Shown in pieces: positions 7,481 to 61,993 of a stretch of 64,000 nt of DNA; the first letter of the stretch is position 1; each line of letters opens with the position of its first letter. The DNA lies in assembly GCA_001790855.1 (NCBI GenBank), contig MGDH01000018.1, forward strand, positions 14,207 through 78,206. Direction: 5' to 3'. The translations under genes were made by a program, and so were the position numbers. Origin of the DNA: Candidatus Schekmanbacteria bacterium RIFCSPLOWO2_02_FULL_38_14. Its GTDB lineage: Bacteria > Schekmanbacteria > GWA2-38-11. The notes under the pieces were generated by a model. The model was not told where the DNA came from and ran no database searches. It saw nothing but the letters and a program-made list of their open reading frames with translations.

Positions 7481-7572
7481 GTCATTGCGAGAAGCGTTAA
7501 CGACGTGGCAATCTCAAAAATGTCATTGTTATTAAAGAAATTGCCACCTGCCTGCGGTAGGCAGGCAATGAC
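7481..7572. repeat. palindromic element family D (GTCATTGCGAG ... CAGGCAATGAC termini) with a family C core inside
   Basis: gtcattgcgagaagcg...gtggcaatctcaaa...ccacctgcctgcggtaggcaggcaatgac. Related copies at 26227-26275, 29775-29891, 48509-48659 and 56028-56046 (partial). Confidence 0.55.
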
Positions 7573-32178: not shown

Positions 32179-32185
32179 AACGAAA

Positions 32186-34949: not shown

Positions 34950-34991
34950 AAAGATGATTACACAGATTATTTAGGAAGATTATACAGATTT

Positions 34992-37451: not shown

Positions 37452-37465
37452 TCAAGAGGTATTTT

Positions 37466-38152: not shown

Positions 38153-38153
38153 G

Positions 38154-39488: not shown

Positions 39489-39501
39489 AAAATATAAGGA
39501 G

Positions 39502-43549: not shown

Positions 43550-43672
43550 AAAAGATTTAATATTTTTTTAAAAATTTGATTTATAAAAGAAGTTTAATAA
43601 AGATAAAGACATCAGGCAATAATAGGAATAAAGTTCTTATTTTAACAATATAAAAAATAAAAGGAGGAGATT

Positions 43673-44245
43673 ATGAGAAAAAGAACAGCCTTGGTTTTTG
43701 TGTTTATATTTTTCTCTTTAATTTTAATTAGTAAAGTTCCAGGCGAAGAGACAAAATATAATTACATGGGTGTATTTAAATGCAAGACCTGCCATGCAAA
43801 TGTAAAGCTTGGTGGAACTGAGCATCAGGTATGGGAAAAAAGTGCCCATTCAAAGGCATACCAGACTTTGGCAAGTGAAAAAGCTAAAGCAAAGGCAAAG
43901 GAGCGGGGCATTGATGATCCTCAGAAGAGTGAGAAATGCTATAAGTGTCATGTGACAGGCTATGGGGTTGATAAAAGCAGATTTGATAAAAAGTTTAAAA
44001 TTGAAGATGGTATTCAGTGTGAAGAGTGCCATGGTCCTGGAGAGGGTTATTATCCCCGGTTTGTGATGCAGAAAAGAGATGAGTCAATAAAGAAGGGTTT
44101 GATAATTCCAGATGAAAAGGTATGTGTTAAGTGCCATAATGAAGAGAGCCCTTTTTATAAAAAATTTAATTTCAAAGAATTTTTTGCAAAGATGGATCAC
44201 AAGGGCCTTGGAACAAGTAAAGTAGGAGGAGGGAGTAAGAAGTAG
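43673..44245 (+). CDS. tetraheme c-type cytochrome (190 aa)
   Basis: Signal peptide; CKTCH, CYKCH, CEECH, CVKCH; own RBS aggagg upstream. Confidence 0.75.
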   Translation: MRKRTALVFVFIFFSLILISKVPGEETKYNYMGVFKCKTCHANVKLGGTEHQVWEKSAHSKAYQTLASEKAKAKAKERGIDDPQKSEKCYKCHVTGYGVDKSRFDKKFKIEDGIQCEECHGPGEGYYPRFVMQKRDESIKKGLIIPDEKVCVKCHNEESPFYKKFNFKEFFAKMDHKGLGTSKVGGGSKK

Positions 44246-44298: not shown

Positions 44299-46203
44299 AT
44301 GAATGAAAAGAAATACAAAGTAGAGATTCCAGATTTAGAATATTACCAGCGTGTAATTAATTGCCAGTATGCCTGTCCAGTTAAAACTGCTGCTGGAAGC
44401 TATGTTACTGCAATTACAGATAGGGAATATGAAAAGGCTTATGATTTTGCAAGAATGCCAAATCCCTTTGTTTATGTCTGTGGAAGGATATGTGACCATC
44501 CATGTGAAACAGCCTGCAGGCGTGGTGCTATTGATGAGCCAATAGCAATATGCGCCCTTAAGAGAACAGCCACTGACCACCATAATTTGAGTTTAGGTCA
44601 TTGGCTAGGCTTGCCTCTTGAAAAGAAAAGAGAGGAAAAGGTAGCTGTTATTGGCGCAGGACCAGCAGGTTTATCAGCAGCCAATGATTTAGCAAGGCTC
44701 GGTTATCAGGTTACTGTTTTTGAAGCATCACCTGTCGCTAGTGGAATGTTATATCTTGGTCTGCCAGGTTATCGCCTGCCAAGAGATATAATCAAATTAG
44801 AGGTTGATTCCATATTAAACCTTGGGGTTGAGCTTAAGACAAATACTCCTTTGGGTGAAGGGTTGAATTTAGAGGATTTAAAGAGGCAAAAATATAAGGC
44901 AATTTTTATTGCTACAGGATGCACAAAAAGCAGGGATTTAAATATAGAAGGAGCTAATCTTGACGGGGTCTTAAAGGGTGTTGATTTTCTCTTAAACATT
45001 AACCTCGGTTATAGGGTTGAACTTGGGAAGAGGGTCATTGTAATTGGTGGTGGAAATGTGGCAATGGATGTGGCTCGTTCAGCTATCAGAAAAGGAACAG
45101 AGCTTGAATCTTTAAGCCCTGAGGAGATGAAAGATGCTTTGGAAAAGGCAAGAAAGGCATTACAGCAATTGGTTGAGAGTGAAGAGGAGAGAGAAAAGGA
45201 GATGCACATTGCAATGGATGTTGCAAGGTTAGCTCTGAGAAAAGGGGCAAAGGATGTGCATTTAGTCTGCCTTGAATCAAGAGAAGAGATGCCTGCCCAT
45301 GCTTGGGAGACAGAAGAAGCATTCGCAGAGGGGATTGTGTTTCATAATAGACTCGGGCCAAAAAGGATTTTAGGAAGAGATGGAAAGGTTACAGGCATTG
45401 AGACCATTAGATGCTCGTCGGTTTTTGATAGTGAGCATAGATTTAATCCAACCTTTATCAAAGGGACAGAAGAATTTATTGAGGCTGATTCAATTATTTT
45501 GGCTATTGGCCAGGCAGCAGATATCTCTTTTTTCAAGAAAGAGGATGGCATTTCAATAACTCGCCAGGGTTTGATAGAAGTTAATCCTGACACCCTCGCA
45601 ACAACAGCAGATGGAATTTATGCAGGTGGAGATATAGCTTTTGGGCCAAGAAATGTTATTGCAGCAATTGCAGATGGACAGAAGGCTGCAAGGTCAATTG
45701 ACTCTTATTTAAGAGGAGAGAGCAAGAAAAGGATTCGGGCAAGAATGGCAGTGATTAAGGATCATAAGATGCATGAAGGATATGAGAGAATCAAAAGGCA
45801 GAAAATGCCTACATTGCCACTTAATAGAAGGATTGGCATTGCTGAGGTAGAATTAGGTTTTTCTGATGAACAGGCAATAGAAGAAGGGAAGCGATGCCTC
45901 AGATGCAATATAAATACAGTCTTTAATGGTAATAAATGTATCCTGTGTGGTGGGTGTGTAGATATATGTCCTGAATATTGCTACAGAATGGCAAAAATTG
46001 AAGAGTTAGAAGAGAATGAGGTTCTTGAAAAGTTAGTTGAAGCAAGATATGGCATTTCTTTTGAAAAATTAAAAAGTGAAAGTGGTTTAAACAGGGCTAT
46101 GATAAAGGATGAAGAGAAATGCATTAGATGCGGCCTATGTGCTGAGCGCTGCCCTACTGGTGCTATTACTATGGAGCTTTTTGAATATAGTGAAAGGATT
46201 TAA
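44299..46203 (+). CDS. NfnB/GltD/SudA-like FAD- and NAD(P)-binding iron-sulfur oxidoreductase with C-terminal 2x[4Fe-4S] ferredoxin domain
   Basis: N-terminal Cys cluster (CQYACP...C), FAD motif VAVIGAGPAGLSAANDLARLGYQVTVFE, second Rossmann VIVIGGGNVAMDVA, C-terminal CILCGGCVDICP and CIRCGLCAERCP. Confidence 0.75.
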   Translation: MNEKKYKVEIPDLEYYQRVINCQYACPVKTAAGSYVTAITDREYEKAYDFARMPNPFVYVCGRICDHPCETACRRGAIDEPIAICALKRTATDHHNLSLGHWLGLPLEKKREEKVAVIGAGPAGLSAANDLARLGYQVTVFEASPVASGMLYLGLPGYRLPRDIIKLEVDSILNLGVELKTNTPLGEGLNLEDLKRQKYKAIFIATGCTKSRDLNIEGANLDGVLKGVDFLLNINLGYRVELGKRVIVIGGGNVAMDVARSAIRKGTELESLSPEEMKDALEKARKALQQLVESEEEREKEMHIAMDVARLALRKGAKDVHLVCLESREEMPAHAWETEEAFAEGIVFHNRLGPKRILGRDGKVTGIETIRCSSVFDSEHRFNPTFIKGTEEFIEADSIILAIGQAADISFFKKEDGISITRQGLIEVNPDTLATTADGIYAGGDIAFGPRNVIAAIADGQKAARSIDSYLRGESKKRIRARMAVIKDHKMHEGYERIKRQKMPTLPLNRRIGIAEVELGFSDEQAIEEGKRCLRCNINTVFNGNKCILCGGCVDICPEYCYRMAKIEELEENEVLEKLVEARYGISFEKLKSESGLNRAMIKDEEKCIRCGLCAERCPTGAITMELFEYSERI

Positions 46204-46210
46204 GCAGAAG

Positions 46211-46345
46211 GGTTCGAGGATTCGAGGGTTCAAATGAAAATCAAAGTTTAAAAATAAAAAATTAAAATTTTGGTATTTGAATTTTGATATTTGATTTTTA
46301 TTTCACTTGAACCCTTGACACCTAGACCCCTTGAACCCTTTTTTG
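46211..46345. repeat. palindromic element, family A variant with GC-rich arms (gggttcgagg...cttgaaccc)
   Basis: gggttcgaggattcgagggttcaaatg...ttcacttgaacccttgacacctagaccccttgaaccc; arms match those of 15531-15668. Confidence 0.55.
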
Positions 46346-46355
46346 AGGTTAACTA

Positions 46356-46829
46356 ATGTCTAAAGACGAAAAAATAGAGGAAATTTCACGTAGATATTTT
46401 TTAGCAGCAGGATGGTCATCTCTTGGCATTATTATGGCTGGCTCAGCCGGTGCAAGCATTCGCTTCTTGCTCCCCAATGTTCTTTTTGAGCCTCCAACTT
46501 CTTTTAGAATTGGAAAGCCTGAAGACTATGCTGATGGTTCAGTAAATTTTTTTCCTGAGAGAAAGATCTTTGTAATTAAAAAAGAGAATGGAATTTTTCA
46601 AACTATCTCTGCAGTATGCACTCATCTACGTTGTATTGTGAAATGGTCAGAGACAAACAAGAATTTTGAGTGCCCCTGCCATGGAAGTATATTTGATGGG
46701 AAAGGCAGAATTATTGGTGGACCTGCTCCAACACCACTTGACTGGTATGAGATAACACTTGGAGAGGATGGTAAATTGTTCATAGATACTATGAAAGTTG
46801 TGGATAGCGGATATTATTTAAAGGTATAA
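46356..46829 (+). CDS. Rieske [2Fe-2S] iron-sulfur subunit of a cytochrome bc-type complex
   Basis: TAT-like RRYFLAAG; CTHLRC...CPCHGS Rieske boxes. Confidence 0.85.
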   Translation: MSKDEKIEEISRRYFLAAGWSSLGIIMAGSAGASIRFLLPNVLFEPPTSFRIGKPEDYADGSVNFFPERKIFVIKKENGIFQTISAVCTHLRCIVKWSETNKNFECPCHGSIFDGKGRIIGGPAPTPLDWYEITLGEDGKLFIDTMKVVDSGYYLKV

Positions 46830-46987
46830 AACATTTCTCCTCATCCTTTATCCTTCTCCCCATAGGGGAGAAGGCAGGTTGAGGGGGAGAAGAAAAACAT
46901 TCAACCCCAGAAGGGGTTTCCCACAGGAAATTGTGGGAGAGAATAAGAGGGACGACAGAGACGTCGTTCCCTACATGATAGGATAAT

Positions 46988-48472
46988 ATGGGGAATATAT
47001 TAAGCAAGTGGACTGAAAGAATTACACAAAACAGAATCTGGAAATCAATTTTCAGACATGGCTATCCTGATACAGAGCTTAATCAATCCCTTGTCATGTA
47101 TACCAATCTTTTTCTTCATATTCAACCTGTAAAGGTTCATAAAAATGTTTTAAGACCATCATATACCTTAAGCCTTGGTTTGATCTCTTTTATACTATTT
47201 CTTGTCCTTGTAATAACAGGGATATATTTAATGTTCTATTATGTCCCTTCAGTTGACAGGGCTTACAATGATATGAAGGAGCTTCAATTTGTTGTCTCCT
47301 TTGGCATATTTTTGAGAAACCTGCACCGATGGTCAGCTCATGGAATGGTGGCTGCAGTATTTTTACATATGTGCAGGGTTTTCTATACGGCTTCTTATAA
47401 ACCTCCAAGAGAATTTAACTGGGTCTTAGGAGTTATACTTTTAATAGTGACATTTGGTTTAAGTTTTACAGGCTATCTTCTTCCCTGGGACCAGCTTGCT
47501 TTCTGGGCAATTACAGTGGGTACAAGCATTGCCAGCTATGCACCAATTATTGGGCAGAAACTACGCTATTTTCTGTTAGGTGGGAATATTGTTGGGCAGA
47601 ATGCTCTTTTGCGGTTTTACGTTCTCCACTGCGTTGTTCTGCCATCAGTTGCTGCTGTCTTAATAGGAATACATTTCTGGCGGATAAGAAAGGATGGAGG
47701 GTTATCAAAGCCTGCAGAAAAATTAAAACAAGAAGAAAAGTTTGAAGAGCTGCAGGAAGAAGGGCTTTCCCCAAAAGGAACAAGTAAGACTTATGGTTTA
47801 ATGGAACTTGTAAAAGGTGCTACTATTCCTGTAGAACAGGAGCCCGAGAATGAGATAATGTCATGGCCACATTTGATCTTTAGAGAGTTCCTTGTCGCCA
47901 TAGTTGTTTTAGTAGTGCTTATTGCTATTTCCTTATTTTTTAATGCACCTCTTGAGGAGCTTGCAAATCCTTCAGAGCCTCCGAATCCAGCAAAGGCTCC
48001 ATGGTATTTCTTAGGACTTCAGGAGCTTGTATCTTATTCAGCCTTTATAGGAGGTGTAATTACACCTTTTCTTGTTGTTTTTGCGCTCCTGATGGCAATA
48101 CCTTATATAGATTACAGAGCAGAAGATGTGGGGATATGGTTTTCCTCTAAGAAGGGTCGTTTAATAGCATTAATTACAGCAACCCTGACATTAATAAGTA
48201 TTCCTGTCTTGATTTTTCTTAATATGAAATACGGGATTAGAGTTTTCTACCCTGATGCTCCTTCAATTCTTGTGGATTTGATAAATCCTGGAACAATTCT
48301 GATTGGAGTTACAGCAGTTATCTCAATTATTATAGGGGTCCGCACTAAGTCATGGAGGTTAGCTGCCATGATGATATTTACCTCCTTTGTAACTGGTTTT
48401 ATTGTGTTGACTGTTATTGGAACATTATTCAGGGGTCCTAACTGGGAGTTTGTTTTCCCATGGAAAGGATAA
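46988..48472 (+). CDS. cytochrome b (fused b6 + subunit-IV-like, 494 aa) of bc-type complex
   Basis: Conserved cytochrome b N-terminus ([12 protein letters not shown] ... [10 protein letters not shown]) and C-terminal PEWY-region equivalent ([10 protein letters not shown]); additional C-terminal TM helices. Confidence 0.85.
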
Positions 48473-48508
48473 AAAAATATATAGGAGTCTGTCAGAGAAC
48501 CCTTTTTT

Positions 48509-48659
48509 GTCATTGCGAGCGACTCCCTCGATATTGCTCGGGACAGGCTCCGGGAGCGTGGCAATCTCAAATCCCCCTATATCCCCCTTTTCCCTGCCTG
48601 CCGGTAGGCAAGTAAAGGGGGAGAAAAGAGGGATTGCTTTGGATTCGCCTCGCAATGAC
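48509..48659. repeat. nested palindromic element ~150 nt: family D termini, then GCAATCTC/GAGGGATTGC, then family B C-runs, then family C core
   Basis: gtcattgcgagcgactccc...gtggcaatctcaaatccccctatatcccccttttccctgcctgccggtaggcaagtaaagggggagaaaagagggattgctttggattcgcctcgcaatgac. Confidence 0.6.
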
Positions 48660-48713
48660 AAGAAAACTCATATTATTTAGAATTTCGAATTTAGGATTTT
48701 AGATTTTAAATAC

Positions 48714-49808
48714 ATGGTTAAATATTTTACATTTTTTAGTATTATTCTCCTGGTCTTTTTTTCTCTTGCCATCTTTAAGGATTATGATAGAGAGTGGAAG
48801 GATTTCCAGAAGAGGTTCTACGAGATTGAATCAGAGAGAGGAAAAAACGCTGAAGAGAAAAAAGTGATAAGAAATACTCCTTTGAGAATAAAACAGATAG
48901 TGTTAGAGGATTTGAATAGAGTTGATAGGTGCACAACCTGCCATCTCGGAATGGAATATGAGAAAAAGTCTTACAAAAAGAATCCATATAAGTCTCATCC
49001 CGACCCAACAATGCATCCCTTTGATCAATTTCCCTTTGATAGATTTGGATGCACCATCTGCCATGAAGGGCAGGGAAGAGCTACTACAAAGGATGATGCC
49101 CATGGTGATGTGGATTTCTGGGATAAGACCATGCTAAGGGGTATTTATCTGCAAGCCTCATGTCTAAAATGTCATGATGACCCTGACCTTAAGGGTGCTG
49201 AGATTGCAATGAAAGGGAAAAAACTTTTTGAGGAAAATGACTGCTATGAGTGTCATAAAGTAGGAGATAAAGGAGAAAGTGTAGGACCTGAGCTTACAAA
49301 GGAAGGATTAAAGACAAAACACCATTTTGATTTTACCCGTGTAAAGGGCAAGCACACTATTGCTAACTGGCAATTCGAGCATCTAAAAAATCCGGAAGCA
49401 GTTGTTCCTGATTCAGTGATGCCAAATTTGGAACTCAGTGATGAAGATGCAAGAGCCTTGACTATATATCTCTTAAGCCTTACTGATGAAAAGGTGCCAG
49501 AAGAATACATAGCGTCTCTAAAAAGAGGTCCTATCCTTGCATTAAGTAGAAAAGTTACAAAGCCTGAGATGAGTCCAGGTGAAAAGCTTTATATAGAGAT
49601 GAACTGCTATTACTGCCATAAGATAAAAGGGGAAGGAGGTGATGGAGCACCTGATTTAACTGGAGTTGGCGCAAGGCATGATGAAGATTGGCTTATAAAA
49701 CATTTTGACACTCCGCGGTCAATAAGTCCTCATTCTTTTATGCCTGACTATAAACTTACACCCGAGGAGATAAAGGCTCTGACAGATTTTATGTTGACTT
49801 TGAAATAG
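48714..49808 (+). CDS. pentaheme c-type cytochrome associated with the Rieske/cyt b genes (C-terminal class-I monoheme domain)
   Basis: N-terminal TM anchor; CTTCH, CTICH, CLKCH, CYECH, CYYCH; C-terminal CYYCHKIKGEGGDGAPDL...FMPDY typical class-I cytochrome c. Confidence 0.75.
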   Translation: MVKYFTFFSIILLVFFSLAIFKDYDREWKDFQKRFYEIESERGKNAEEKKVIRNTPLRIKQIVLEDLNRVDRCTTCHLGMEYEKKSYKKNPYKSHPDPTMHPFDQFPFDRFGCTICHEGQGRATTKDDAHGDVDFWDKTMLRGIYLQASCLKCHDDPDLKGAEIAMKGKKLFEENDCYECHKVGDKGESVGPELTKEGLKTKHHFDFTRVKGKHTIANWQFEHLKNPEAVVPDSVMPNLELSDEDARALTIYLLSLTDEKVPEEYIASLKRGPILALSRKVTKPEMSPGEKLYIEMNCYYCHKIKGEGGDGAPDLTGVGARHDEDWLIKHFDTPRSISPHSFMPDYKLTPEEIKALTDFMLTLK

Positions 49809-49840
49809 CTATGAGACAAAGGTTTTCATAAAACAATCAA

Positions 49841-50000
49841 GCCCAGAAGGGCTTTTCCACAGTTTTATGTGGGAGAGCCTTTTTAGGCTCGATAGCGAAG
49901 AAAAAAATAAGGAGGTGATGAGACAAGCTACATAGTAAGGGAAAGAGTTTAGATTTAAATTCTGTTAGCTACCGGATATATTTAAGAAAAAGGAGGAACT
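49841..50000 (+). promoter_or_regulatory. conserved leader/promoter module (copy 1): GCCC-AGAA-GGGC hairpin, CCACAG-TTTTAT-GTGGGAG hairpin, GAGCC-TTTTT-AGGCTC hairpin, A-rich tract, TTTAGATTTAAATTCTGTTAGCTACCGGATATATTTAAG, AGGAGG RBS
   Basis: Near-identical ~140-nt block recurs at 53010-53149 upstream of the next gene; hairpins and a TTGAAT/TTTAAA-17nt-ATATAT promoter-like spacing seen in sequence. Confidence 0.45.
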
Positions 50001-52790
50001 ATGATTGAAGAAGTATTTTTGATACTGAAAAGAAAATGGTTTATATGTGCATTGGCTTTTCTTTTTGCCATTTCAGCATCCTATGTTTTTGAGAAAGAAG
50101 CCAGTGCAGCAAAAACTTATAACATAGTGGTTAAGATAAAGTCAAATAAAGCCACTAACAGAACAGGCGTAGCGGTAGAGGTCACAGGAGGAGATTTAAC
50201 AACACCCAAGACTGCTACAACGAAAAAAACAGGTATTGTAAAGTTTACAAAACTTGCTAAAGGAACTTACACTGTTACTCCTGCAAAGGAAGGCTATACC
50301 TTTGACCCTGAATCAAAGCCTGTTACATTTGCAACAAGGAGAACAGTAAATGTTGTTTTTAAGTCAACAGAGGTTGTAATTCCTGTTACTGAAGAGGCTA
50401 TAACTCTGTCAACATCTGCAAACGGGACTCACTTTGCTGCGGGTGAGAAACCAATAATCACCATTTCTCTGCCCGACCTGTCCAGCCGCAGTGACTATTC
50501 GCAGCTACGCCTGGTGGTTTATGGTCCACAGGAAACGACCAAGACTAAAACAGCGGTGAATCTGCTCAATGCGTCCACTGACCGTTCCTTAGCTAACACG
50601 GGCCCGCATCACTACATTGACCTCGTTACAGACACCAATGTTCAGCTCAATGATAATATTCTGACCTATACGCTCCAGCCAATCACAGATGAAGAAGCAG
50701 GGACATACACAGCAAGTTTGTGGGCTGTTTTGAAAGATGACCCTTCTGTGCAGTCGTTCCCGCTTGCTGATTTCCAGATTGGAACAGCTACTGCTGAGAC
50801 GCAAATAGTAGAGAGGGAAAATTGTTCTGTCTGCCATAAGGGTGCTGATAGCGGGAAATATTACTTCCATCACATAGATCCTCGTACCGCCGGTTCATCT
50901 GGATACCCATCAATTGACTCGTGGGCAGTGAGAACGTGCAAGAGCTGCCATAACACAGATGGCTATGCAGCATACACTGATCCCGCTAATCCCTCTGCCA
51001 CTGATGGCTCTAATAAAATTCCGGATCCGATTGTAAAGCGTGTACATGGTGTTCATATGGGAGAGGAGTTAAAGAACGCGCTCAACACTGACGCGACGAC
51101 AGGTATTTTCAAAAACTACACAAGTGTGGTATTTCCTGCAAATGTCAAGAACTGCACTATGTGTCACGTGGATGATAAATGGAAGACCACACCTTCACGT
51201 CTTGCTTGTGGCGCCTGCCATGATAATATCTGGTTTGGTGATCCGGCAGCCCTTCCTTCAGGACAAGAGGCACATCCTGGTTTACAACAGGATAGCGATA
51301 CCGGATGCTCTACCTGCCACCCTGCAGATGGTTCATGGACCAAGGGTTCGGCACCTGCACCCATTTCAACGGTTCACAAGGTTGATTCGCCAGCTTACAA
51401 GTATACTGTAGAGATTAGCCTAAGCGCACCGGCAAATGAGACTCACTATGTTGCGGGCGAGGCGCCTCAGGTAACAATAACAATCAAAGATGCTACCACT
51501 GGTGCCACAATTGACCCGAACACGCTAACAGAGACCGCCTTCAGCCGTGCCTCTCTCTACGTCTCCGGCCCGCGTGAAAATACAAAACCTGTGCTTACCA
51601 CCTCGGCCAAGGGCCTTGGAGCCGTCCGTGCTTTGGCGACGAACAGCAAGGATGGACCCTGGGATCTGTCAGGCGACCCTACCTTTATCATTGGCATTGA
51701 CGGTACCTCCCGCACGGTAACGGCTGCGGCAAGTAATTTCGCAAATCCGGCAGCTGCGACCCAGGCAGAGGTCATTACATGGCTGAAAAAGGCGCTTCCT
51801 GATGGCATTGGCGATGTGGCGACAGTCTCTGCGTCTGGCACAACAAAAGTCACGATTAAAAGCAATACCAGAGGCTCGACATCCAAGGTCGAGATCTTTG
51901 CAAGTTCAGTTGCAACGGCTATGGGGTGGACCGTTGGTGCGAAAACCCCTACACCTCGTTCCTATGCCAGCAATGACTTCCGCGTCCGCAAAGATTCTTT
52001 TGATGAGGATCCGAAGGTGAGTCGTTCCACCACTGCAGTTACGTACCAGTTAGACGATGTTGCCGGTCTGACCTCAGGCACCTATACTGCTTTTGCCCAG
52101 ATGAGTCCGACATCTGGTTTTGGCGGCTCGGCGGTGGTCAATTTCCAAGTGGGTGGGGCTACAGAAGAAAAGAAGGTTGCTACAAACTGTACCAATTGCC
52201 ATGGTGATACAACAATGCACAGCACCTCCTTATCAGTGCCATTCAATCCAGACATCTGCAAGAACTGCCACGATTACAATCGTGAGGGGACTGGATATGG
52301 TTGGGCCGGCGCTCCCCCGACCGGAACGAACGGGACCTCAACGAGCGGCTGGAGCGGTTTTGGTGCCAAGCCCTTATCAAGCAGAATCCACGGTGTTCAC
52401 CGCGGTCGTTATCTGGAGCATCCTGAGGATGTAAAACCACTGTATAGGCTCGTAAGCGGGGTTGCCACGTATTGGCCTGAATACGATTTCTCTGAAGTGA
52501 TTTTCCCTCAGGATATAAGAAACTGCACCAAGTGTCACAGCGCCGATACGACCGGGACTTGGAAGACAGAACCATCTCGGTTAGCCTGTCTTGCCTGCCA
52601 CGACAACGATGAGGCAACTACCCACGGTAATCTGATGACGTATGATACGACACCTACAGATCCATGGAGCGGTGATGAGATAGAGACATGTGTTGTGTGT
52701 CATGGTTCTGGTAGGGACTTTTCTCCTGACAAGGTGCACAATATCTCGAGTCCCTATAAGCCACCGTATCTACGAGAGCCTGCAGAGTAA
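50001..52790 (+). CDS. large secreted decaheme c-type cytochrome (929 aa), mosaic composition
   Basis: Signal/anchor N-terminus, beta-sandwich N-domain. Ten CxxCH sites: CSVCH, CKSCH, CTMCH, CGACH, CSTCH, CTNCH, CKNCH, CTKCH, CLACH, CVVCH. Internal duplicated module (CxxCH...WKT.PSRLAC.ACHDN occurs twice). Bases ~50420-52790 are ~55% GC vs ~33% elsewhere. Confidence 0.8.
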   Translation: MIEEVFLILKRKWFICALAFLFAISASYVFEKEASAAKTYNIVVKIKSNKATNRTGVAVEVTGGDLTTPKTATTKKTGIVKFTKLAKGTYTVTPAKEGYTFDPESKPVTFATRRTVNVVFKSTEVVIPVTEEAITLSTSANGTHFAAGEKPIITISLPDLSSRSDYSQLRLVVYGPQETTKTKTAVNLLNASTDRSLANTGPHHYIDLVTDTNVQLNDNILTYTLQPITDEEAGTYTASLWAVLKDDPSVQSFPLADFQIGTATAETQIVERENCSVCHKGADSGKYYFHHIDPRTAGSSGYPSIDSWAVRTCKSCHNTDGYAAYTDPANPSATDGSNKIPDPIVKRVHGVHMGEELKNALNTDATTGIFKNYTSVVFPANVKNCTMCHVDDKWKTTPSRLACGACHDNIWFGDPAALPSGQEAHPGLQQDSDTGCSTCHPADGSWTKGSAPAPISTVHKVDSPAYKYTVEISLSAPANETHYVAGEAPQVTITIKDATTGATIDPNTLTETAFSRASLYVSGPRENTKPVLTTSAKGLGAVRALATNSKDGPWDLSGDPTFIIGIDGTSRTVTAAASNFANPAAATQAEVITWLKKALPDGIGDVATVSASGTTKVTIKSNTRGSTSKVEIFASSVATAMGWTVGAKTPTPRSYASNDFRVRKDSFDEDPKVSRSTTAVTYQLDDVAGLTSGTYTAFAQMSPTSGFGGSAVVNFQVGGATEEKKVATNCTNCHGDTTMHSTSLSVPFNPDICKNCHDYNREGTGYGWAGAPPTGTNGTSTSGWSGFGAKPLSSRIHGVHRGRYLEHPEDVKPLYRLVSGVATYWPEYDFSEVIFPQDIRNCTKCHSADTTGTWKTEPSRLACLACHDNDEATTHGNLMTYDTTPTDPWSGDEIETCVVCHGSGRDFSPDKVHNISSPYKPPYLREPAE

Positions 52791-52811
52791 ATAAAGCAAG
52801 GTGGATTCGTT

Positions 52812-52856
52812 AACAAGCCTATTCCCGATGGGGGGGGGTAGGCTTGTTATTTTATC
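52812..52856 (+). terminator. rho-independent terminator after the decaheme gene (aacaagcct...aggcttgtt + T-run)
   Basis: 9-bp stem, G-run loop, followed by attttat. Confidence 0.5.
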
Positions 52857-53009
52857 AAATATTTCTAATTAGCCATATGAGATATTATAGGAGGAAGAGA
52901 TAAAGGTTCTGATTAAATAGAGGTTGACTTTGAAATAGGTATAGGCTAAAAGTTTTTGCAAAATAATCGGCCCCACAGAAGGGGCCTCCCCTGCCTGCGG
53001 TAGGCAGGC

Positions 53010-53149
53010 ACAGTTTTATGTGGGAGCGCCTTTCAAGGCTCGATATAGAAAAGAAAAAAATGGAAAGGGGTGATGCAATAGAATAGATAAAAACTGGAGA
53101 AGGTTAGATTTGAATTCTGTTAGCTACCGAATATATTTAAGGAGGATAT
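53010..53149 (+). promoter_or_regulatory. conserved leader/promoter module (copy 2), paralogous to 49841-50000
   Basis: cacagttttatgtgggagcgcctttcaaggctcgata...ttagatttgaattctgttagctaccgaatatatttaaggagg atg; a family-C palindrome is inserted just upstream (52988-53011). Confidence 0.45.
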
Positions 53150-54679
53150 ATGAAGAGAAATTTATTTTTGACGACAATTTTCGTAGGAGTGTTTATCTCC
53201 TCGATTCTTTCCTTTTCCTATGCCACTGCTAAGGGGAAACCAGGAAAGAAGCCAACGGTTATAAGCATAACCCCGAAAACAGGAGCACAAGGGGAACCCC
53301 TTGATGTAACTATAAAAGGAAAGAATTTTGTTGACACACCTACTGTTAGTTTAGGCGCAGGGATAACTGTGAATGGAGTTGAGTTTGTCTCAGCGACAAA
53401 GTTAACTGCAAACATCACTATTGCCTCAGATGCTAAGATAGGACCAAAACCTGTAACTGTTACTAATCCTGATGGGAAAAAAAGCCAGGCAAAGAAAATT
53501 TTCAAGGTTAAGAAAAGCACATTACCTCAGGCTGATATAATTGCTAAAAAGGTAACAGATGAACCAGGTGAGGCTGATTGGGCAAAAATATCTGGTTCAT
53601 TAATCCAGACAACAGGCAACCCAGCAACTGGAGGACATGGTGCTCTCGGTGAAGAGAATCTCGTTGCAGTAAAGCTTCAGGCATCTCATGACAGCACAAA
53701 TATCTTCATGAGATTTGAATGGGATGACTCAACCCAGAATAACACCCATGAGGTCTGGACATATAGTGCAAGCAGTAGCACATGGTCTAAAGCTGGCAAT
53801 GAGGACAGAATTCTTATTGCATGGCCAATTACAGACGTTGCTGGCAGAGAGGGAAAAACTTTTCAGGAGATTGGATGTGCAATGCTCTGCCACCTGAAGG
53901 ATGCAAATGACCCAACTAAAACTAAGATTGTGCCTAACACCACTGACGCAGTCAATGATTGTTCAGTTTGCCATCCAAATTCTTCAGGTAAAGATACAAC
54001 CTTTGTCCATGTATTACCTACATCAGCTCAAACTTGTATTAGCTGCCATGCTGATAGGGAGATTGAAGAGATTGCTGATATGGGTTCACCTTCTGGTGGT
54101 GCCTTTGACATCTGGCACTGGAAAGCTGGAAGAAGCGATGGTATAGGACTTGCTGAGGACCAGGAAGCATCTGACGGCAAACTTCGAACAAATGATGGTG
54201 CAGGGCTTACAAGCAATAACGATGGTCCTGCTGGATTCACGGACAGGCCAAAATATATCTGGACTGCTGCTTCAGGTAAAGGAGCTTCTCCTGTAACAGA
54301 GATAATAAAGAATAGCGAGATCGCATCCCTTAAGGCTTCAAATTACCTTGCTGAGATAAATGCTACTGATGGGAAATATTATCTTAGCAATGGAACAACT
54401 GAAGAAGTTCTAGGGGATGGTGCGCAAGTGAGGAGAAGAATCCTTAAGGATGGAACCAATATTACAGAGCCTGGCAATGGAGATATCAAGGCATCAAGCG
54501 GCTATTTAGACGGAAAATGGACAGTAGTACTTAAGAGAAAACTCAATACTACTGACACTAAAGACTATGTGTTCAAAACAGGTGAAACTGATATAAACTA
54601 CTTTGGATTTGCTGTCACTGACAACAGCGGGAACAGCCATAAAGCAAAGGCTTTGCTGAAATTGAGGTTTGGGCAGTAA
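53150..54679 (+). CDS. secreted IPT/TIG-domain protein with c-type heme motifs (one CX3CH plus two CxxCH)
   Basis: Signal peptide. N-terminal IPT/TIG-like Ig domain (VISITPKTGAQGEPLDVTIKGKNF). Heme motifs GCAMLCH (verified on DNA: tgt gca atg ctc tgc cac), CSVCH, CISCH. Confidence 0.65.
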   Translation: MKRNLFLTTIFVGVFISSILSFSYATAKGKPGKKPTVISITPKTGAQGEPLDVTIKGKNFVDTPTVSLGAGITVNGVEFVSATKLTANITIASDAKIGPKPVTVTNPDGKKSQAKKIFKVKKSTLPQADIIAKKVTDEPGEADWAKISGSLIQTTGNPATGGHGALGEENLVAVKLQASHDSTNIFMRFEWDDSTQNNTHEVWTYSASSSTWSKAGNEDRILIAWPITDVAGREGKTFQEIGCAMLCHLKDANDPTKTKIVPNTTDAVNDCSVCHPNSSGKDTTFVHVLPTSAQTCISCHADREIEEIADMGSPSGGAFDIWHWKAGRSDGIGLAEDQEASDGKLRTNDGAGLTSNNDGPAGFTDRPKYIWTAASGKGASPVTEIIKNSEIASLKASNYLAEINATDGKYYLSNGTTEEVLGDGAQVRRRILKDGTNITEPGNGDIKASSGYLDGKWTVVLKRKLNTTDTKDYVFKTGETDINYFGFAVTDNSGNSHKAKALLKLRFGQ

Positions 54680-54876
54680 GAACAATCAACTGTGAGAGAG
54701 CCTTTCCCTGCCTACTGCAGGCAGGCTCGATAAATATTTTCTGGATTAAAGCCGTCAGGGAAAAATTCTCTGACGGCTTTAATATTTGCAATGAAAAATA
54801 AATCTGATATATAAAGTAAAATTTTTAAATCTTGTAGGAAAGACTTTTAGACTCGATGAATATTTTTTGATTAAAC

Positions 54877-55917: not shown

Positions 55918-56046
55918 ACCGAGAATCTCAAATCCCCCTCTATTCCCCTTTTCCCTGCCTGCCGGCAGGCAAGTAATGGGGGAGAAAAGAGAGATTGCTT
56001 TGTCGCCTGCCTGCGGTAGGCAGGCTTTGCTCCTCGCAATGACATT
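55918..56046. repeat. composite palindromic element (family B C-runs + two family C cores + family D right terminus)
   Basis: gaatctcaaatccccctctattccccttttccctgcctgccggcaggcaagtaatgggggagaaaagagagattgctttgtcgcctgcctgcggtaggcaggctttgctcctcgcaatgac; ORF 55885-56127 is produced by it. Confidence 0.6.
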
Positions 56047-56059
56047 GTCGGGGAGATTG

Positions 56060-58267
56060 TTATTCTGGTTTTTCTGTCCAGAAGCAGATTGAATAAGTAT
56101 GCTTTGTGCTTTGTGATGTGACGTCAACTTTGATTTTCTTTTTTTCTGACTGTTGAAGTGAAAAATCTATTGCTATGATTTTTTCTGAATGGGGCAACAC
56201 TTTAACTGAACCTTGTCTGATGCCCAATTCTTCAGGATAAATATTGTAAATATAGTTTTCTTCAATATCAGCATGGTTTTTTATAGAAAAAGAAAATCTG
56301 TTTTTTTCATTTTTAATAATTATTGGAAGGAGAGTGGTTGTTTTATTATTGAAAGTCTCCGCAGGAGAAAGAAAAGAAGAAATATTCTGCCTTGCAGCTT
56401 GAAGCGGTTTTGGAACTGGATTGCTTTTATCAGTTTCAACAAACACTGTATCTTGTAAATCTGTTTTCAGGTATTTCTTGGCTCCTGATATCCGGAAATA
56501 GACTTCTGTTTTGTTAAATGCAAATGATTTGCCTGTCAAAGAGTCCAGAGAAATCTGTTTAAGTCTTAGCGGAAACGGCGAACTCTCTTCGTATGGATAA
56601 AAGAATATAACAATATTGCCATTATCATAAATTCTACTGATTGATTCTGATGATTCAAGTCTTGAATGAAACTCCGGGTCTTTCCCGGTAAACCTGCGGC
56701 TCATCTCCCTGTAAGTGTAATATATCCTGTCATCAGTTTCATGTGAAGGAACAACAAAAAACCTTATAAAATATTTTCTCGCAGTCTCCTCAACATCTCC
56801 CCTTATCATTCTGATTCCATCTGAGAGTTCAAGGTCTCTGAAGTTGTATGCCTCAAATCCCATTAAATTTGCAAATGGGGCGTTTTCATAGACAAGCAGG
56901 GAATCAGGGCTTTCAGGAATAAATTTTATTGCCTGAATATAACTGTTTATCCATCCGGTTAAATCTTTGGTCCTCCAATAGGTGTACCTGATGCTGTAGA
57001 ATATAATCATTAAAATCAGAATTGAGGTTCCTGTATATGAAAATAGATTACTCTGAAATAACGATTTTGAGTTCAATGCCTTTGTTATGAGCAAAGAAGG
57101 GAGTGCCATTAGCAGGTATGATATGGAAACATAAAAGGTCATTTTCAGGATTCCGTCTAAGTTCTCAAGAGGAGTGTTAAAAGGACCTGTGAATTTTAAG
57201 AATAGATAAAATATACTTCCAAGAACAAGAGTTAATATTAAAAAGGGGCTATGATGTTGAGAAGAACTATTGAAAACAGAGTCAATGGCAACAGCCATAA
57301 TAATACACATCATCGGAACTGCAGGCATGAGGATTCTCGGGAAATGATGCCCCGGATTTATTATCGCAAGAATTATGTAGGAAAGAGAAAAAACAAGAAC
57401 CAGCAGGTTTGGGATATAAATTTTTTTATTACTGAATGATATGTAAATAAAAAAAACAAATGACGGGAGAAAAATGAAATAGATTAATGAATAGTAATCA
57501 CAGATATTTGACCACAAACCACGGTAGAAATACTCCATTGATTGAAGCCATGCAGGCATTCCAAAGTCTCTGAAAAAATATATGCCGAGTTTATTTATGC
57601 GGTAGGCAAAGAAGGGAAGAAGGAATAAAACTGAAGAAATTAAAAAAACAGAAAGGTTTTTGCTCAGGAAATCTGTTTTCTCTTTCTTTTTAAGCTTAAT
57701 AATTAAATCTATAAGGAGCCAGACAAAAATTCCAATAACGATTGCCATTGAAAATGTCCTGAAGAAGAAGGCAAGGGACGCAGTAATTCCTGCAAGAACA
57801 GCAAAAGAAAATTTCTCTTTCTCTATGCTTATCAGCAGGAGAAGGGCTGAGGAGATTATTAAAAGAGATGTATATGTGTATCCCTTGCACAGATATGAGA
57901 AGATTACATGGAGAGGGAAGATAGCCAGGAAAGTGGAAGACAGAAATGCTACCCGCGGATTATAAGCTTTTATGCAAAAAATGTAGGTTATAATGATTGT
58001 GATAAGCGCAACAAGGGATTCAAGAATTTTACCAACGACTAAATGCTCACCTGTGAAGCGGTAGATAAAACCCAAAATTATTCCTGCAAGACTCGAGTCT
58101 ATGCTGATCTTTCCTGTATAGGCGAATTGCCGTGCATTTAAAAGAATTACTGCCCCGTCAGTTTCTATCAGGGGTGTGCTTAAGGAATAAAAAAACCTTA
58201 TAATTCCTCCAAGGAGGAGAGGGATAACAAGAGGAAAATAAATATAAGATTTATTTGAAGTCATCAA
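56060..58267 (-). CDS. GT-C superfamily membrane glycosyltransferase (ArnT/PMT-like, GT39/GT83-type) with C-terminal soluble domain
   Basis: 735 aa, ~12 N-terminal TM helices with first periplasmic loop acidic motif region (ETDGAV), large C-terminal extracytoplasmic domain. Confidence 0.5.
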   Translation of the reverse strand: MMTSNKSYIYFPLVIPLLLGGIIRFFYSLSTPLIETDGAVILLNARQFAYTGKISIDSSLAGIILGFIYRFTGEHLVVGKILESLVALITIIITYIFCIKAYNPRVAFLSSTFLAIFPLHVIFSYLCKGYTYTSLLIISSALLLLISIEKEKFSFAVLAGITASLAFFFRTFSMAIVIGIFVWLLIDLIIKLKKKEKTDFLSKNLSVFLISSVLFLLPFFAYRINKLGIYFFRDFGMPAWLQSMEYFYRGLWSNICDYYSLIYFIFLPSFVFFIYISFSNKKIYIPNLLVLVFSLSYIILAIINPGHHFPRILMPAVPMMCIIMAVAIDSVFNSSSQHHSPFLILTLVLGSIFYLFLKFTGPFNTPLENLDGILKMTFYVSISYLLMALPSLLITKALNSKSLFQSNLFSYTGTSILILMIIFYSIRYTYWRTKDLTGWINSYIQAIKFIPESPDSLLVYENAPFANLMGFEAYNFRDLELSDGIRMIRGDVEETARKYFIRFFVVPSHETDDRIYYTYREMSRRFTGKDPEFHSRLESSESISRIYDNGNIVIFFYPYEESSPFPLRLKQISLDSLTGKSFAFNKTEVYFRISGAKKYLKTDLQDTVFVETDKSNPVPKPLQAARQNISSFLSPAETFNNKTTTLLPIIIKNEKNRFSFSIKNHADIEENYIYNIYPEELGIRQGSVKVLPHSEKIIAIDFSLQQSEKKKIKVDVTSQSTKHTYSICFWTEKPE

Positions 58268-61312: not shown

Positions 61313-61993
61313 CTACTGAGAGACTGTGGTAAAATGTATAACCCGGCTAGTAATCATATCATTACCATTGCCGTCAGTATCTTTTGTTTCCAGACGCAGC
61401 TCATATTCAGTACCTGACTGAAGCGGGCTATCTAAAAAATCCAGCGATGTATCGCCTGTTGACAGCTCAAATTTCTCCTCCTCCAGACCCTCAGCTTTGA
61501 TATAGAGAATCAAGCCATCTATGCCACTCAAAGAACTCCATTTAATCTCAGGAGTTAAAGAAACATCTGTGTCATTGTCCTGAGGGGAGGTGATGTCAGG
61601 GGTAGGTGGAAAATCGTGGATGACACCTACCTGAAGATTTCCATACTGCTTTGGATAGAGAATAATCTGATATTTCCCTTCAGGATACTTTCGCACAAAT
61701 TCTTCCTTGCTCAGCCCATCAGCTTTCAGATTGATAGCGAAGTCATTAAAATTAAATGTATTTTTTAAAACCATTGTTTTACCGGTTGGAAGCCTCAACA
61801 GGGCTTTTTGCAGTTTCTTCGTATCCTCAGTAGCAAGCTGGAACTCAATTGCATATTCCTCTTTTGTGGGGTAAACATATTTGTAATGGTCAATACCCCA
61901 TTTTATCTCTTCTTTAGCTACAAGCTCAGTATTTAAAAGACCTGTCAGGAAAAGAAAAACCACGACAAAAGCTATTACAAAATTTTTTCTCAT
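61313..61993 (-). CDS. secreted hypothetical protein with C-terminal Ig/FN3-like region
   Basis: Signal peptide MRKNFVIAFVVVFLFLTGLLNTELVA; no catalytic motifs. Confidence 0.4.
   Translation of the reverse strand: MRKNFVIAFVVVFLFLTGLLNTELVAKEEIKWGIDHYKYVYPTKEEYAIEFQLATEDTKKLQKALLRLPTGKTMVLKNTFNFNDFAINLKADGLSKEEFVRKYPEGKYQIILYPKQYGNLQVGVIHDFPPTPDITSPQDNDTDVSLTPEIKWSSLSGIDGLILYIKAEGLEEEKFELSTGDTSLDFLDSPLQSGTEYELRLETKDTDGNGNDMITSRVIHFTTVSQ

Follow-up and report, generated by a model that had tools for sequence, protein, structure and literature searches.

A 509-residue protein encoded in the window (the whole 64-kb stretch of DNA analysed here) carries a CX3CH motif within a beta-sandwich haem domain of the EB_dh/DOMON-like type, and this motif is a conserved signature of a large, unstudied branch of the EB_dh domain family. 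The domain accounts for two thirds of the protein and was missed by the initial annotation, as was the fact that the two CXXCH motifs of the protein belong to a clade-specific insertion. The protein is probably an extracytoplasmic, soluble electron-transfer cytochrome that operates between quinone-linked complexes and multihaem cytochromes, with three c haems and possibly one haem b in addition.

Protein architecture and the fold of the haem domain

The gene and its product are made up as follows.

53150-54679, + strand: CDS of 509 aa, with signal peptide, TIG domain, and EB_dh domain with CX3CH and a di-CXXCH insertion
53150-53230, + strand: predicted Sec signal peptide, residues 1-27 (by inspection)
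53252-53485, + strand: IPT/TIG Ig-like domain, residues 35-112
53573-54634, + strand: EB_dh/DOMON-like haem domain, residues 142-495
53876-53893, + strand: CX3CH motif C243-AML-C247-H248, codons TGT GCA ATG CTC TGC CAC
53894-54073, + strand: insertion of ~60 residues with two CXXCH, residues 249-308
53960-53974, + strand: CSVCH, in the insertion
54008-54010, + strand: codon of His287 in a conserved F-x-H, in the insertion
54035-54049, + strand: CISCH, in the insertion
54080-54082, + strand: Met311, at the site of the haem b axial Met of EbdC (Met108) and NxrC (Met155), from alignments
54113-54127, + strand: W322-H-W-K-A326 strand motif, common to NxrC (WHWKA) and EbdC (WYWKA)
54638-54640, + strand: His497, where the last strand begins, close to the axial-Lys site of EbdC (Lys201) and NxrC (Lys305), with an alignment uncertain by up to ~4 residues

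An AGGAGG ribosome-binding site (53140-53145) lies 5 nt upstream of the ATG, and the product matches a hypothetical protein from a Candidatus Schekmanbacteria MAG at 100% identity. The N terminus begins with MKR, continues into a hydrophobic core and ends in A25-T-A27 ahead of a Lys, a make-up that by inspection predicts a Sec-type signal peptide. Residues 3-22 form a helix in the AlphaFold2 model, and homologues have equivalent N termini in the alignment. The protein had earlier been called secreted, with the lack of a signal peptide named as grounds for giving that view up; the predicted peptide is in keeping with secretion. The TIG domain proposed at the same time is confirmed by a Pfam TIG match over residues 35-112 (27 bits, cut-off 20.9) and an Ig-like fold, and residues 34-115 also match the NCBIfam ‘choice-of-anchor Z’ repeat (50.3, cut-off 30).

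The remainder of the mature protein is dominated by the EB_dh domain, matched by Pfam PF09459 across residues 142-495 (96.2 bits, cut-off 33.3; E 4.1e-27). It has the beta-sandwich fold of EbdC and NxrC, which are also its nearest structures in a PDB fold search. The CX3CH motif is located in the loop that provides the Met haem ligand in these two proteins, and a Met is found where the axial Met is expected: Met311 stands 11 residues before W322, compared with 10 residues in both EbdC (2ivf_C) and NxrC (7b04_C). A Met occupies this column in ~70-90% of single-domain representatives, depending on how they are counted. The ligands of NxrC are Met155 and Lys305, ‘as in EBDH’ (PMC8387239). An equivalent axial Lys is not conserved here, within an alignment uncertainty of ~4 residues: K498 and K500 vary, and His497 is conserved instead. 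Of the 82 single-domain representatives without a gap at this position, 74 have a His, and several of the others have a Lys close by. The core has three or four conserved candidate ligands (H248, M311, H323 and H497).

Sequence and fold searches of the PDB returned haem b relatives only, with no solved structure of a CX3CH-type EB_dh domain among them. No description of this motif in an EB_dh/DOMON domain was found in the freely accessible literature. InterPro calls the domain ‘cytochrome c-552/DMSO reductase-like haem-binding domain’, a name that may reflect an earlier encounter with a c-type member.

Conservation of the haem motifs

The protein contains six cysteines in total, all of them within three haem motifs, CAMLCH (residues 243-248), CSVCH (271-275) and CISCH (296-300), in agreement with the three haem-c-type motifs originally reported. 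One CX3CH and two CXXCH, all conserved, together with predicted Sec export to the compartment in which haem is attached, are the marks of a c-type cytochrome. CX3CH itself is a recognised but rare attachment motif for haem c (PMC11492766; bioRxiv 2025.05.29.656830).

The spacing of this motif is fixed across the family. Among the 150 best cluster representatives at 50% identity, CX3CH is present in 136, giving 161 motifs, or about one per domain in multi-domain proteins, compared with zero occurrences of the reversed control HC...C. The returned sequences show no drift towards CX2C or CX4C. In 17 homologues with identities down to 25%, the C247 and H248 columns are invariant, although the His match in two of them (P0055 and P0060, which read VCGH) depends on an alignment gap; these two are also the ones that lack C243, which is kept in 15 of 17. 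The 96 single-domain representatives have the two cysteines in 85 and 93 cases and the His in 93, a count that includes ~7 C-G/V-H variants placed in that column by gaps. Conservation of CX3CH in an alignment of homologues had been proposed as a check, and the spacing is indeed kept in homologues of 25-80% identity and throughout the family; a sequencing indel as the source of the motif is thereby ruled out.

The branch is large, with about 1,900 clusters at 50% identity from bacteria and archaea, and its clusters are named solely ‘ethylbenzene dehydrogenase-related protein’ or ‘hypothetical’. Contig scans of genomes and metagenomes with the family alignment, which rested on the one narrow pattern [FY]DIWHWK, gave five Thorarchaeota loci from genomes and seven mostly short loci from metagenomes. 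Relatives of the Thorarchaeota type lack the first Cys and have C-G-H instead, which is not a haem c motif, and they retain the His, the Met and the C-terminal His, so these residues matter even without covalent attachment. In minimal family members the His and Met of the loop are only four residues apart (His-x3-Met), and by our own geometric estimate it is unlikely that both serve one haem.

The two CXXCH motifs have a narrower distribution. The insertion that houses them is present in only 16 of the 150 best representatives, and 100 of the 136 CX3CH carriers have no CXXCH whatever; in six representatives the protein is extended by fused stretches carrying four or more CXXCH. In a set of 27 domains of the trihaem type (identity 34-81%), all six cysteines and H163, H248, H275, H287 and H300 are invariant, M311 and H323 are each kept in 26 of 27, and H497 is found in all 24 domains that have a residue at that column. 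The insertion looks like a c7-type di-haem module. It shares the pattern C-x2-C-H ... F-x-H ... C-x2-C-H with the c7/GSU1996-type domains of 3ouq_A; the profile match is marginal (E 0.015), those domains have three haem motifs rather than two, and the module here sits in a loop of another domain. In the AlphaFold2 model the insertion has a pLDDT below 50, which is no surprise for a fold that depends on haem and was modelled in its absence, and the region around CX3CH reaches ~57-68, a moderate confidence.

Gene neighbourhoods and the proposed electron route

The EB_dh gene follows a series of genes for quinone-linked complexes and multihaem cytochromes.

34446-40731, + strand: Qrc-like module and tetrahaem cytochrome c
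46356-49808, + strand: Rieske protein, fused cytochrome b (ExtP plus ExtQ-like) and pentahaem cytochrome c, forming a bc-type complex
49764-50000, + strand: paralogous leader copy upstream of the decahaem gene, beginning within the 3' end of the pentahaem gene (48714-49808)
50001-52790, + strand: MtrC/OmcA-like decahaem cytochrome, 929 aa with 10 CXXCH, between the leader copies
52811-52849: terminator-like hairpin 3' of the decahaem gene
52894-53149, + strand: leader of the EB_dh gene
within 52894-53149, + strand: remnant of the pentahaem gene's 3' end
52990-53008: REP-like palindrome in the leader
53110-53137: promoter-like site TTGAAT-N16-TATATT in the leader
53118-53132: invariant box TGTTAGCTACCGAAT in the leader

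The Qrc-like module, 12 kb from the EB_dh gene, encodes a pentahaem QrcA-like protein, a Mo-subunit-like protein, a 4Fe-4S protein and NrfD, followed by the tetrahaem cytochrome c. The reading frames at 34446-39488 are best described as QrcA, B, C and D-like, with every score below the equivalog cut-off. The likeness to the menaquinone reductase QrcABCD is one of context and not of the protein itself, in that the module of the window is Qrc-like and recurs beside family members; Qrc is not known to have an EB_dh subunit. The decahaem protein has MtrC/MtrF domains (PF22113, E 2.4e-26) and scores 183.6 with TIGR03507 against a cut-off of 209.3.

Similar genes recur next to relatives, namely the Qrc-like FeS/NrfD module and the Rieske/cytochrome b complex. 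In the contig of the closest relative (L010), a pentahaem gene of 87% identity leads directly through the leader into the EB_dh gene, and its 4.6 kb hold no decahaem gene, either between these two genes or elsewhere. In two other loci (L011 and L013) a module orthologous to that of the window, with QrcA-like, Mo, FeS, NrfD and tetrahaem c genes, is followed directly by the TIG-EB_dh gene and then by multihaem cytochromes. In two more (L016 and L017) a single-domain CX3CH EB_dh gene directly precedes FeS and NrfD genes, whose products are 40% and 44-47% identical to those of the window. A further family gene (L012) lies within a multihaem cluster with ResB/CcsA. Four of the ten distinct family contexts examined, counting the window as one, have no cytochromes or quinone modules nearby.

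The two leader copies (49764-50000 and 52894-53149) are direct repeats of 73-84% identity, and within the window they are unique to the decahaem and EB_dh genes. The initial annotation held that the two genes share a leader; this is correct for the upstream DNA and wrong for the signal peptides, as the N-terminal peptides of the two proteins are unrelated and a shared signal peptide is ruled out. Searches of the leader for a riboswitch or other known RNA gave only noise in Rfam at E <= 1. The duplicated, promoter-like leader suggests that the EB_dh and decahaem genes are co-regulated.

The 64-kb window contains no cytochrome c maturation gene, and a maturation system elsewhere in the genome is implied by the many other CXXCH proteins of the window. 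The dedicated System I lyase that had been envisaged was likewise not found in these 64 kb, and the maturation genes close to homologues in two loci (L012 and L014) are of System II (ResB/CcsA).

From these observations the following route can be proposed. After Sec export, the protein would be a soluble cytochrome that is at least periplasmic and possibly released further. Its core would be a beta-sandwich of the EB_dh/DOMON-like type, the fold in whose pocket EbdC and NxrC ligate haem b with a Met and a Lys. The G-C-x3-C-H of the Met-bearing loop would attach a haem covalently at or beside this ancestral pocket, with His248 as one axial ligand, and the former Met and Lys sites would be occupied by the conserved Met311 and His497. 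The insertion in the same loop would add two further c-type haems at C271-H275 and C296-H300, with distal ligation probably by His287 and by His163, a residue specific to the clade, resulting in a short haem chain. The N-terminal TIG domain may act as a spacer or docking module. Judging from the gene neighbourhood, electrons would be exchanged with quinone-linked complexes, i.e. the Qrc-like FeS/NrfD module and the Rieske/cytochrome b/pentahaem complex, and then with multihaem cytochromes such as the co-regulated decahaem protein.

Alternative readings and relation to known systems

Met311 and His497, the latter replaced by Lys in some members, are conserved at the ligand positions of haem b, and the protein could accordingly hold four haems: a non-covalent haem b at these residues, a separate c haem at CX3CH, in contact with the first and ligated by His248 and possibly His323, and the two haems of the insertion, i.e. 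one b and three c. The eight potential axial residues conserved in the trihaem clade (H163, H248, H275, H287, H300, M311, H323 and H497) equal four times two, the His-x3-Met spacing fits two adjacent haems better than one, and NxrC-like proteins combine a ‘haem b-binding domain’ with one to three haem c sites (Lucker et al., PMC3578206). NxrC, however, has WHWKA and a single haem, so that the His of this motif can be present without ligating a haem, as may hold for His323; an equivalent of His163 occurs in EbdC (GHG), so that this residue, too, may be structural; and a single-domain member of ~300 aa would have to bury two haems. We therefore regard four haems as somewhat unlikely. It is quite doubtful, on the other hand, that CX3CH binds no haem at all and serves as a disulfide or non-haem metal site, with haem c confined to the two CXXCH motifs and the domain itself binding haem b only, or a sugar or other ligand. 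The C-G-H of the Thorarchaeota type does keep Cys and His in an arrangement foreign to haem c, and haem b could be bound by the Met and His at its ligand positions alone. Against this stand the His directly after the second Cys in 93 of 96 single-domain representatives (the ~7 gap-placed variants included), the fixed C-x3-C spacing, held through the top 150 and never met in reverse, and the bona fide CXXCH modules that are repeatedly fused to the domain or interrupt it.

The location and partners of the protein allow two further readings. The initial annotation saw a surface haem adhesin or terminal contact of an extracellular conduit, working with the decahaem MtrC/OmcA-like cytochrome. The gene does adjoin that of the decahaem MtrC/MtrF-domain protein with a common upstream region, TIG or ‘choice-of-anchor’ domains are typical of surface proteins, close homologues have poly-Thr linkers, the cluster includes Geobacter Ext-like components, and for Borgs an EBDH-like haem protein outside the cell has been suggested (PMC9605863). 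No anchor was identified, however, as the signal peptide has no Cys (no lipobox) and the C terminus no sorting signal, and MtrA/MtrB-like or other porin-cytochrome genes are absent from the 64 kb. Outer-membrane proteins resembling TolC and FadL suggest a diderm host, in which Sec export by itself would lead no further than the periplasm. The closest relative has no decahaem gene in its contig, several homologues have no cytochrome neighbours, and the genes of single-domain relatives share operons with those of FeS/NrfD, modules of the inner membrane that face the periplasm. A surface contact of this kind is improbable. The nearest structures, NxrC and EbdC, together with weak EB_dh matches to TIGR03477 and NF042980, would also agree with a gamma subunit of a type II DMSO-reductase-family molybdoenzyme of the Nxr, Nar, Ebd, Ser or Clr type. 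This is scarcely credible, given scores of 38.6 against a cut-off of 169.85 (TIGR03477) and 18 against 400 (NF042980), the absence of type II alpha and beta subunits from the window and of a NarG/NarH-type pair from the homologue loci, and a sole Mo-type subunit in the window that is best described as QrcB, PhsA or ArrA type and is paired with NrfD.

The soluble electron-transfer cytochrome remains the preferred reading, and it can be extended, tentatively, to the family. The branch may be a widespread, unstudied class of c-type cytochromes with the beta-sandwich EB_dh/DOMON fold and the signature G-C-x3-C-H-(x3)-M in the haem b loop of EbdC and NxrC. Its members would act as haem subunit or electron shuttle of FeS/NrfD quinone modules, as in the three-gene unit EB_dh - FeS - NrfD, maybe with haem b and c side by side in one small domain, and clade-specific insertions and fusions would turn them into haem wires. 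If CX3CH does tether a haem in or beside the EB_dh/DOMON pocket, a known haem b domain would have a large c-type sister branch, and the family would be a clear natural example of a beta-sandwich fold converted from haem b to haem c. Qrc/NrfCD-like quinone modules and bc-type complexes of uncultured groundwater and sediment bacteria, for which schemes usually leave a blank between quinol and the multihaem cytochromes, would also gain a candidate partner. Counts based on CXXCH alone miss such proteins (100 of the 150 representatives), and the cytochrome content of many metagenome-assembled genomes is therefore probably underestimated.

[quoted passage not shown] The 509-residue protein differs from both in the CX3CH of its Met loop, two extra CXXCH, a His in place of the Lys, its TIG domain and the lack of a type II alpha/beta partner nearby. 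The cytochrome domain of fungal cellobiose dehydrogenase, of the DOMON family (1d7c, 4qi3), binds haem b with His/Met ligation; it lacks a motif for covalent attachment, comes from eukaryotes and is joined to a flavodehydrogenase.

The literature search for a CX3CH EB_dh domain gave three nearest cases, all compared here by description. The ‘alternative NxrC’ proteins of Nitrospina, Nitrospira and Kuenenia have a DMSO-reductase-like haem b-binding domain with one to three haem c sites; some are predicted to be soluble periplasmic electron carriers, and they are uncharacterised (Lucker et al. 2013, PMC3578206). They resemble the present protein in having an exported EB_dh domain with one to three haem c sites. 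Their genes belong to NXR clusters, whereas the window has no nxrA- or nxrB-like genes and the protein instead has a TIG domain and a Qrc-like, bc-type and multihaem context. The other two cases are the EBDH-like extracellular protein of the Lilac Borg (Al-Shayeb et al. 2022, PMC9605863) and an MtrA-DOMON fusion that adjoins mtrCAB (Baker et al. 2022, PMC8805035), for both of which a part in extracytoplasmic electron transfer is proposed. Both combine domains of the DOMON/EB_dh type with haem-binding and adhesion-type modules, as does the protein described here; the Borg protein differs in its cohesin domain, and the MtrA-DOMON protein in being a fusion with a nonahaem MtrA.

Domain and motif organisation of the EB_dh protein

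The protein encoded at 53150..54679 carries an EB_dh domain, which the initial annotation had overlooked and which is found by Pfam. Its features are as follows.

53150..54679, + strand: EB_dh protein, 509 aa; AGGAGG lies 5 nt before the ATG
Residues 35-112: TIG domain (Pfam)
Residues 142-495: EB_dh domain (PF09459; Pfam, E 4.1e-27)
53876-53893, + strand: CX3CH motif C243-A-M-L-C247-H248 (codons TGT GCA ATG CTC TGC CAC)
Residues 271-275: CSVCH
Residues 296-300: CISCH
Between H248 and M311: insertion of ~60 residues with both CXXCH motifs

The protein has six cysteines, all inside the three haem motifs. By inspection, a Sec signal peptide is predicted at the N terminus (MKR, hydrophobic core, A25-T-A27/K), and residues 3-22 form a helix in the AlphaFold2 model. 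The secretion claimed at the outset is upheld as a prediction, and the N-terminal TIG domain is upheld by Pfam. The EB_dh profile has only 236 positions, and the domain must therefore contain ~120 inserted residues. An identical protein is deposited as hypothetical, from a Candidatus Schekmanbacteria MAG of the Rifle aquifer series. In P0002, P0003 and P0004 (homologues 73-76% identical) and in L018 752-2356, TIG and EB_dh are joined by 15-20 residues of poly-Thr/Ser, a kind of linker characteristic of secreted proteins with several domains; the window protein does not have it.

The CX3CH signature and the predicted haem pocket

The columns of G242, C247 and H248 are invariant across 17 homologues, with identity down to 25%. 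C243 is lost in only two of them, both Thorarchaeota-type with the sequence VCGH, whose match to the His hinges on an alignment gap. Searching 1.84 billion cluster representatives with a profile recovers 1,919 members of the family at E <= 1e-3, of which 137 reach E <= 1e-30. Among the best 150 of these 1,919, 136 have CX3CH (161 motifs in total), with about one motif per EB_dh domain in multi-domain proteins; CXXCH is wholly missing from 100, six are joined to segments bearing four or more CXXCH, and the reversed control HC...C is never found. The three motif columns in the 96 single-domain representatives read C (85), C (93) and H (93), the last count taking in ~7 C-G/V-H variants aligned to that column via a gap. 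This conservation means that the motif is neither an indel nor chance, nor peculiar to the window protein: the initial annotation was right to take it as real, and the sequencing error that would have undone it is ruled out.

Archaeal relatives with C-G-H for C-H and no first Cys (L005-L009, from Thorarchaeota MAGs, and P0055, P0060, P0081, P0089, P0092 and P0164) retain the Met and the C-terminal His. They may represent a form with haem b, in organisms not known to have cytochrome c maturation. Two further groups of relatives appear circularly permuted. In P0046, P0091, P0101, P0111, P0127, P0157, P0174, P0195 and P0029 the last strand, which bears the His/Lys position (..S-D-N-S-G-x-H/K-N-G..), is N-terminal and the protein stops where others go on; in P0135, P0155 and P0171 the last three strands come first.

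CX3CH is a rare but recognised haem c attachment motif (PMC11492766), also seen in MtrA variants (bioRxiv 2025.05.29.656830). In NxrC, the gamma subunit of Kuenenia nitrite oxidoreductase, haem b is held by Met155 and Lys305, 'as in EBDH' (PMC8387239). In HMMER alignments the first Trp of the W-x-W-K-A strand follows the Met by 10 residues in the structures of NxrC and of EbdC, its ethylbenzene dehydrogenase counterpart, and W322 follows M311 by 11 residues in the window protein. M311 is kept in 26 of 27 trihaem-type domains (CX3CH plus two CXXCH); for single-domain members the figure is roughly 70-90%, a range set by the counting method. His497 opens the last strand, ~4 residues or less from the Lys position of EbdC/NxrC; its column is His in all 24 trihaem domains and in 74 of the 82 single-domain members with a residue there, with Lys nearby in several others. 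CX3CH and Met share one loop, which in minimal members reads G-C-x3-C-H-x3-M-x-T-N-x-P..D-x-W-H-W-K, the His-to-Met offset being most often 4. The conserved CX3CH, Met and His positions thus give the core four potential axial residues: H248, M311, H323 and H497. A single haem in the core would be c-type and lie in the old EbdC/NxrC pocket; two would be haem b on Met/His and haem c on CX3CH.

The di-CXXCH insertion occurs in only 16 of the best 150 representatives. Across 27 domains of this kind (34-81% identity) its motif residues do not vary, nor do H287 (F-x-H) and H163 (GGHG), and its C-x2-C-H..F-x-H..C-x2-C-H pattern weakly matches the GSU1996 c7-type domains (3ouq_A, E 0.015). Model confidence is low here, which is no surprise for a segment that depends on haem and was modelled in its absence. 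The clade-specific His, two proximal and two distal, would suffice for two bis-His haems.

Gene neighbourhoods and the repeated leader

The EB_dh gene is the last of a long respiratory cluster.

34446-39488: Qrc-like module (pentahaem QrcA-like protein, Mo-subunit-like protein with Tat signal, 4Fe-4S protein, NrfD)
39502-40731 and 41121-42347: two tandem paralogous tetrahaem cytochromes, each with four class I cytochrome c domains
42380-44245: pentahaem and tetrahaem cytochromes
44299-46203: NAD(P)-binding FeS flavoprotein, GltD-like, 634 aa, preceding the Rieske/cytochrome b complex
46356-49808: Rieske protein, fused ExtP+ExtQ-like cytochrome b, pentahaem cytochrome
49963-49977 and 53118-53132: box TGTTAGCTACCG(A/G)AT, overlapping a promoter-like site
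50001-52790: MtrC/MtrF-domain decahaem protein, 929 aa
52811-52849: strong terminator-like hairpin 3' of the decahaem gene

The ExtP-like/ExtQ-like fusion scores 272.9 bits against a cut-off of 290, and the gene order at 44299-48472 recalls unusual anammox bc complexes and the ext cluster of Geobacter. The genes immediately upstream of the Qrc-like module (31249-34274) encode a phosphonate-type substrate-binding protein, a HisKA_3 sensor kinase and a response regulator of the LuxR/NarL type, all three possibly regulating the module. TolC-like and FadL-like outer-membrane proteins in the window indicate a diderm cell. A 735-aa protein (56060-58267, - strand), whose first ~450 residues look multi-pass hydrophobic by inspection, and a 226-aa protein (61313-61993, - strand) have no Pfam match at E <= 1e-6.

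Relatives are found in the following settings.

L011 and L013 (loci of relatives 42-44% identical): QrcA-like, Mo, FeS, NrfD and tetrahaem c genes, TIG-EB_dh, then multihaem cytochromes
L016 and L017 (single-domain, CX3CH only): EB_dh, then directly FeS protein and NrfD
L016 3730-7252 and L017 1080-4584: three-gene unit EB_dh - 4Fe-4S protein - NrfD
L012: multihaem cluster with ResB/CcsA
L014: ResB/CcsA ~5 kb from the EB_dh homologue
L010 900-1176: copy of the leader/junction

An FeS/NrfD quinone module facing the periplasm is the partner that recurs. Its Qrc-like proteins in L011 and L013 are 38-71% identical to their window counterparts; in L016 and L017 the FeS protein shares 40% identity with 37466-38152 and NrfD 44-47% with 38154-39488. 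The three-gene unit resembles a small complex linked to quinone, with EB_dh in place of the Qrc cytochrome and Mo-like subunits. L011 and L013 have one tetrahaem copy, nearer the second window paralogue, and a NarL/NarX-type two-component pair lies upstream of the unit in L016. L001, L003 and L015 have no redox genes beside the homologue. The initial annotation tied CX3CH to specific System I maturation, which is not supported: the maturation genes seen near relatives are System II only, and the 64-kb window has no cytochrome c maturation genes. These System II genes lie a few kb from the homologues, at L012 3212-6339 (ResB and a long CcsA-like protein of 650 aa) and L014 11280-13834.

A leader shared by the decahaem and EB_dh genes had also been proposed, and the upstream DNA agrees: 49764-50000 and 52894-53149 form a direct repeat, 73-84% identical, that occurs nowhere else in the window. 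The repeat starts within the final ~45 nt of the pentahaem gene; the EB_dh leader consequently holds a defunct remnant of the 3' end of that gene. The promoter-like site has the same place in both leaders (decahaem copy TTTAAA-N17-TATATT, EB_dh copy TTGAAT-N16-TATATT). The 15-nt box is invariant in all five leaders compared (two in the window, L010, L018, L019) although its surroundings diverge, and could be an operator. A REP-like palindrome, CCTGCCTGCGGTAGGCAGG, has four intergenic copies (7547-7565, 52990-53008, 54707-54725, 56006-56024; 0 expected by chance) and a degenerate one near 48590; the copy in the EB_dh leader is an insertion relative to the decahaem leader.

In the window the decahaem gene is flanked by the two copies of the ~250-nt leader/junction repeat, whereas in L010, whose EB_dh protein is 76% identical, the pentahaem gene (87% identical) runs directly into one leader and the EB_dh gene, and there is no decahaem gene. 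The two arrangements point to insertion of the decahaem gene in the window lineage, or its loss by recombination between repeats in the L010 lineage.

Proposed role and known systems

The window protein is probably an exported, EB_dh-based electron-transfer cytochrome. The CX3CH-bound haem would sit at or beside the old pocket, the insertion would carry two c7-like haems, and the protein would connect quinone-dependent membrane complexes with multihaem cytochromes. The main variant of this reading, in which haem b is also retained in the pocket, draws on the same potential axial residues and is a tentative, rather unlikely option. The surface contact first proposed for this three-haem TIG protein is more doubtful: the protein has neither lipobox nor C-terminal anchor, the 64-kb window contains no porin-cytochrome genes to provide a conduit, and synteny is not conserved. 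A non-haem role for CX3CH is quite improbable because the spacing is fixed and a His is adjacent. The classical gamma-subunit role is not supported and most improbable; the protein scores far under the cut-offs of the gamma-subunit families proper.

No solved structure of a c-type EB_dh member is found in PDB sequence and fold searches, and the searched literature, covering few subscription journals, yields no description of the CX3CH signature, the Met-loop position, the di-haem insertion or the EB_dh-FeS-NrfD unit. The domain family is already annotated, its members being named 'ethylbenzene dehydrogenase-related protein' by NCBI. Proteins with this domain and 1-3 haem c sites have been described as 'alternative NxrC' in nitrite oxidisers and left uncharacterised (PMC3578206); an extracellular EBDH-like haem protein has been noted in a Borg (PMC9605863), and an MtrA-DOMON fusion beside mtrCAB (PMC8805035). 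EbdC and NxrC bind the FeS beta subunit of their own enzymes, an arrangement echoed by the FeS/NrfD neighbours of the EB_dh relatives.
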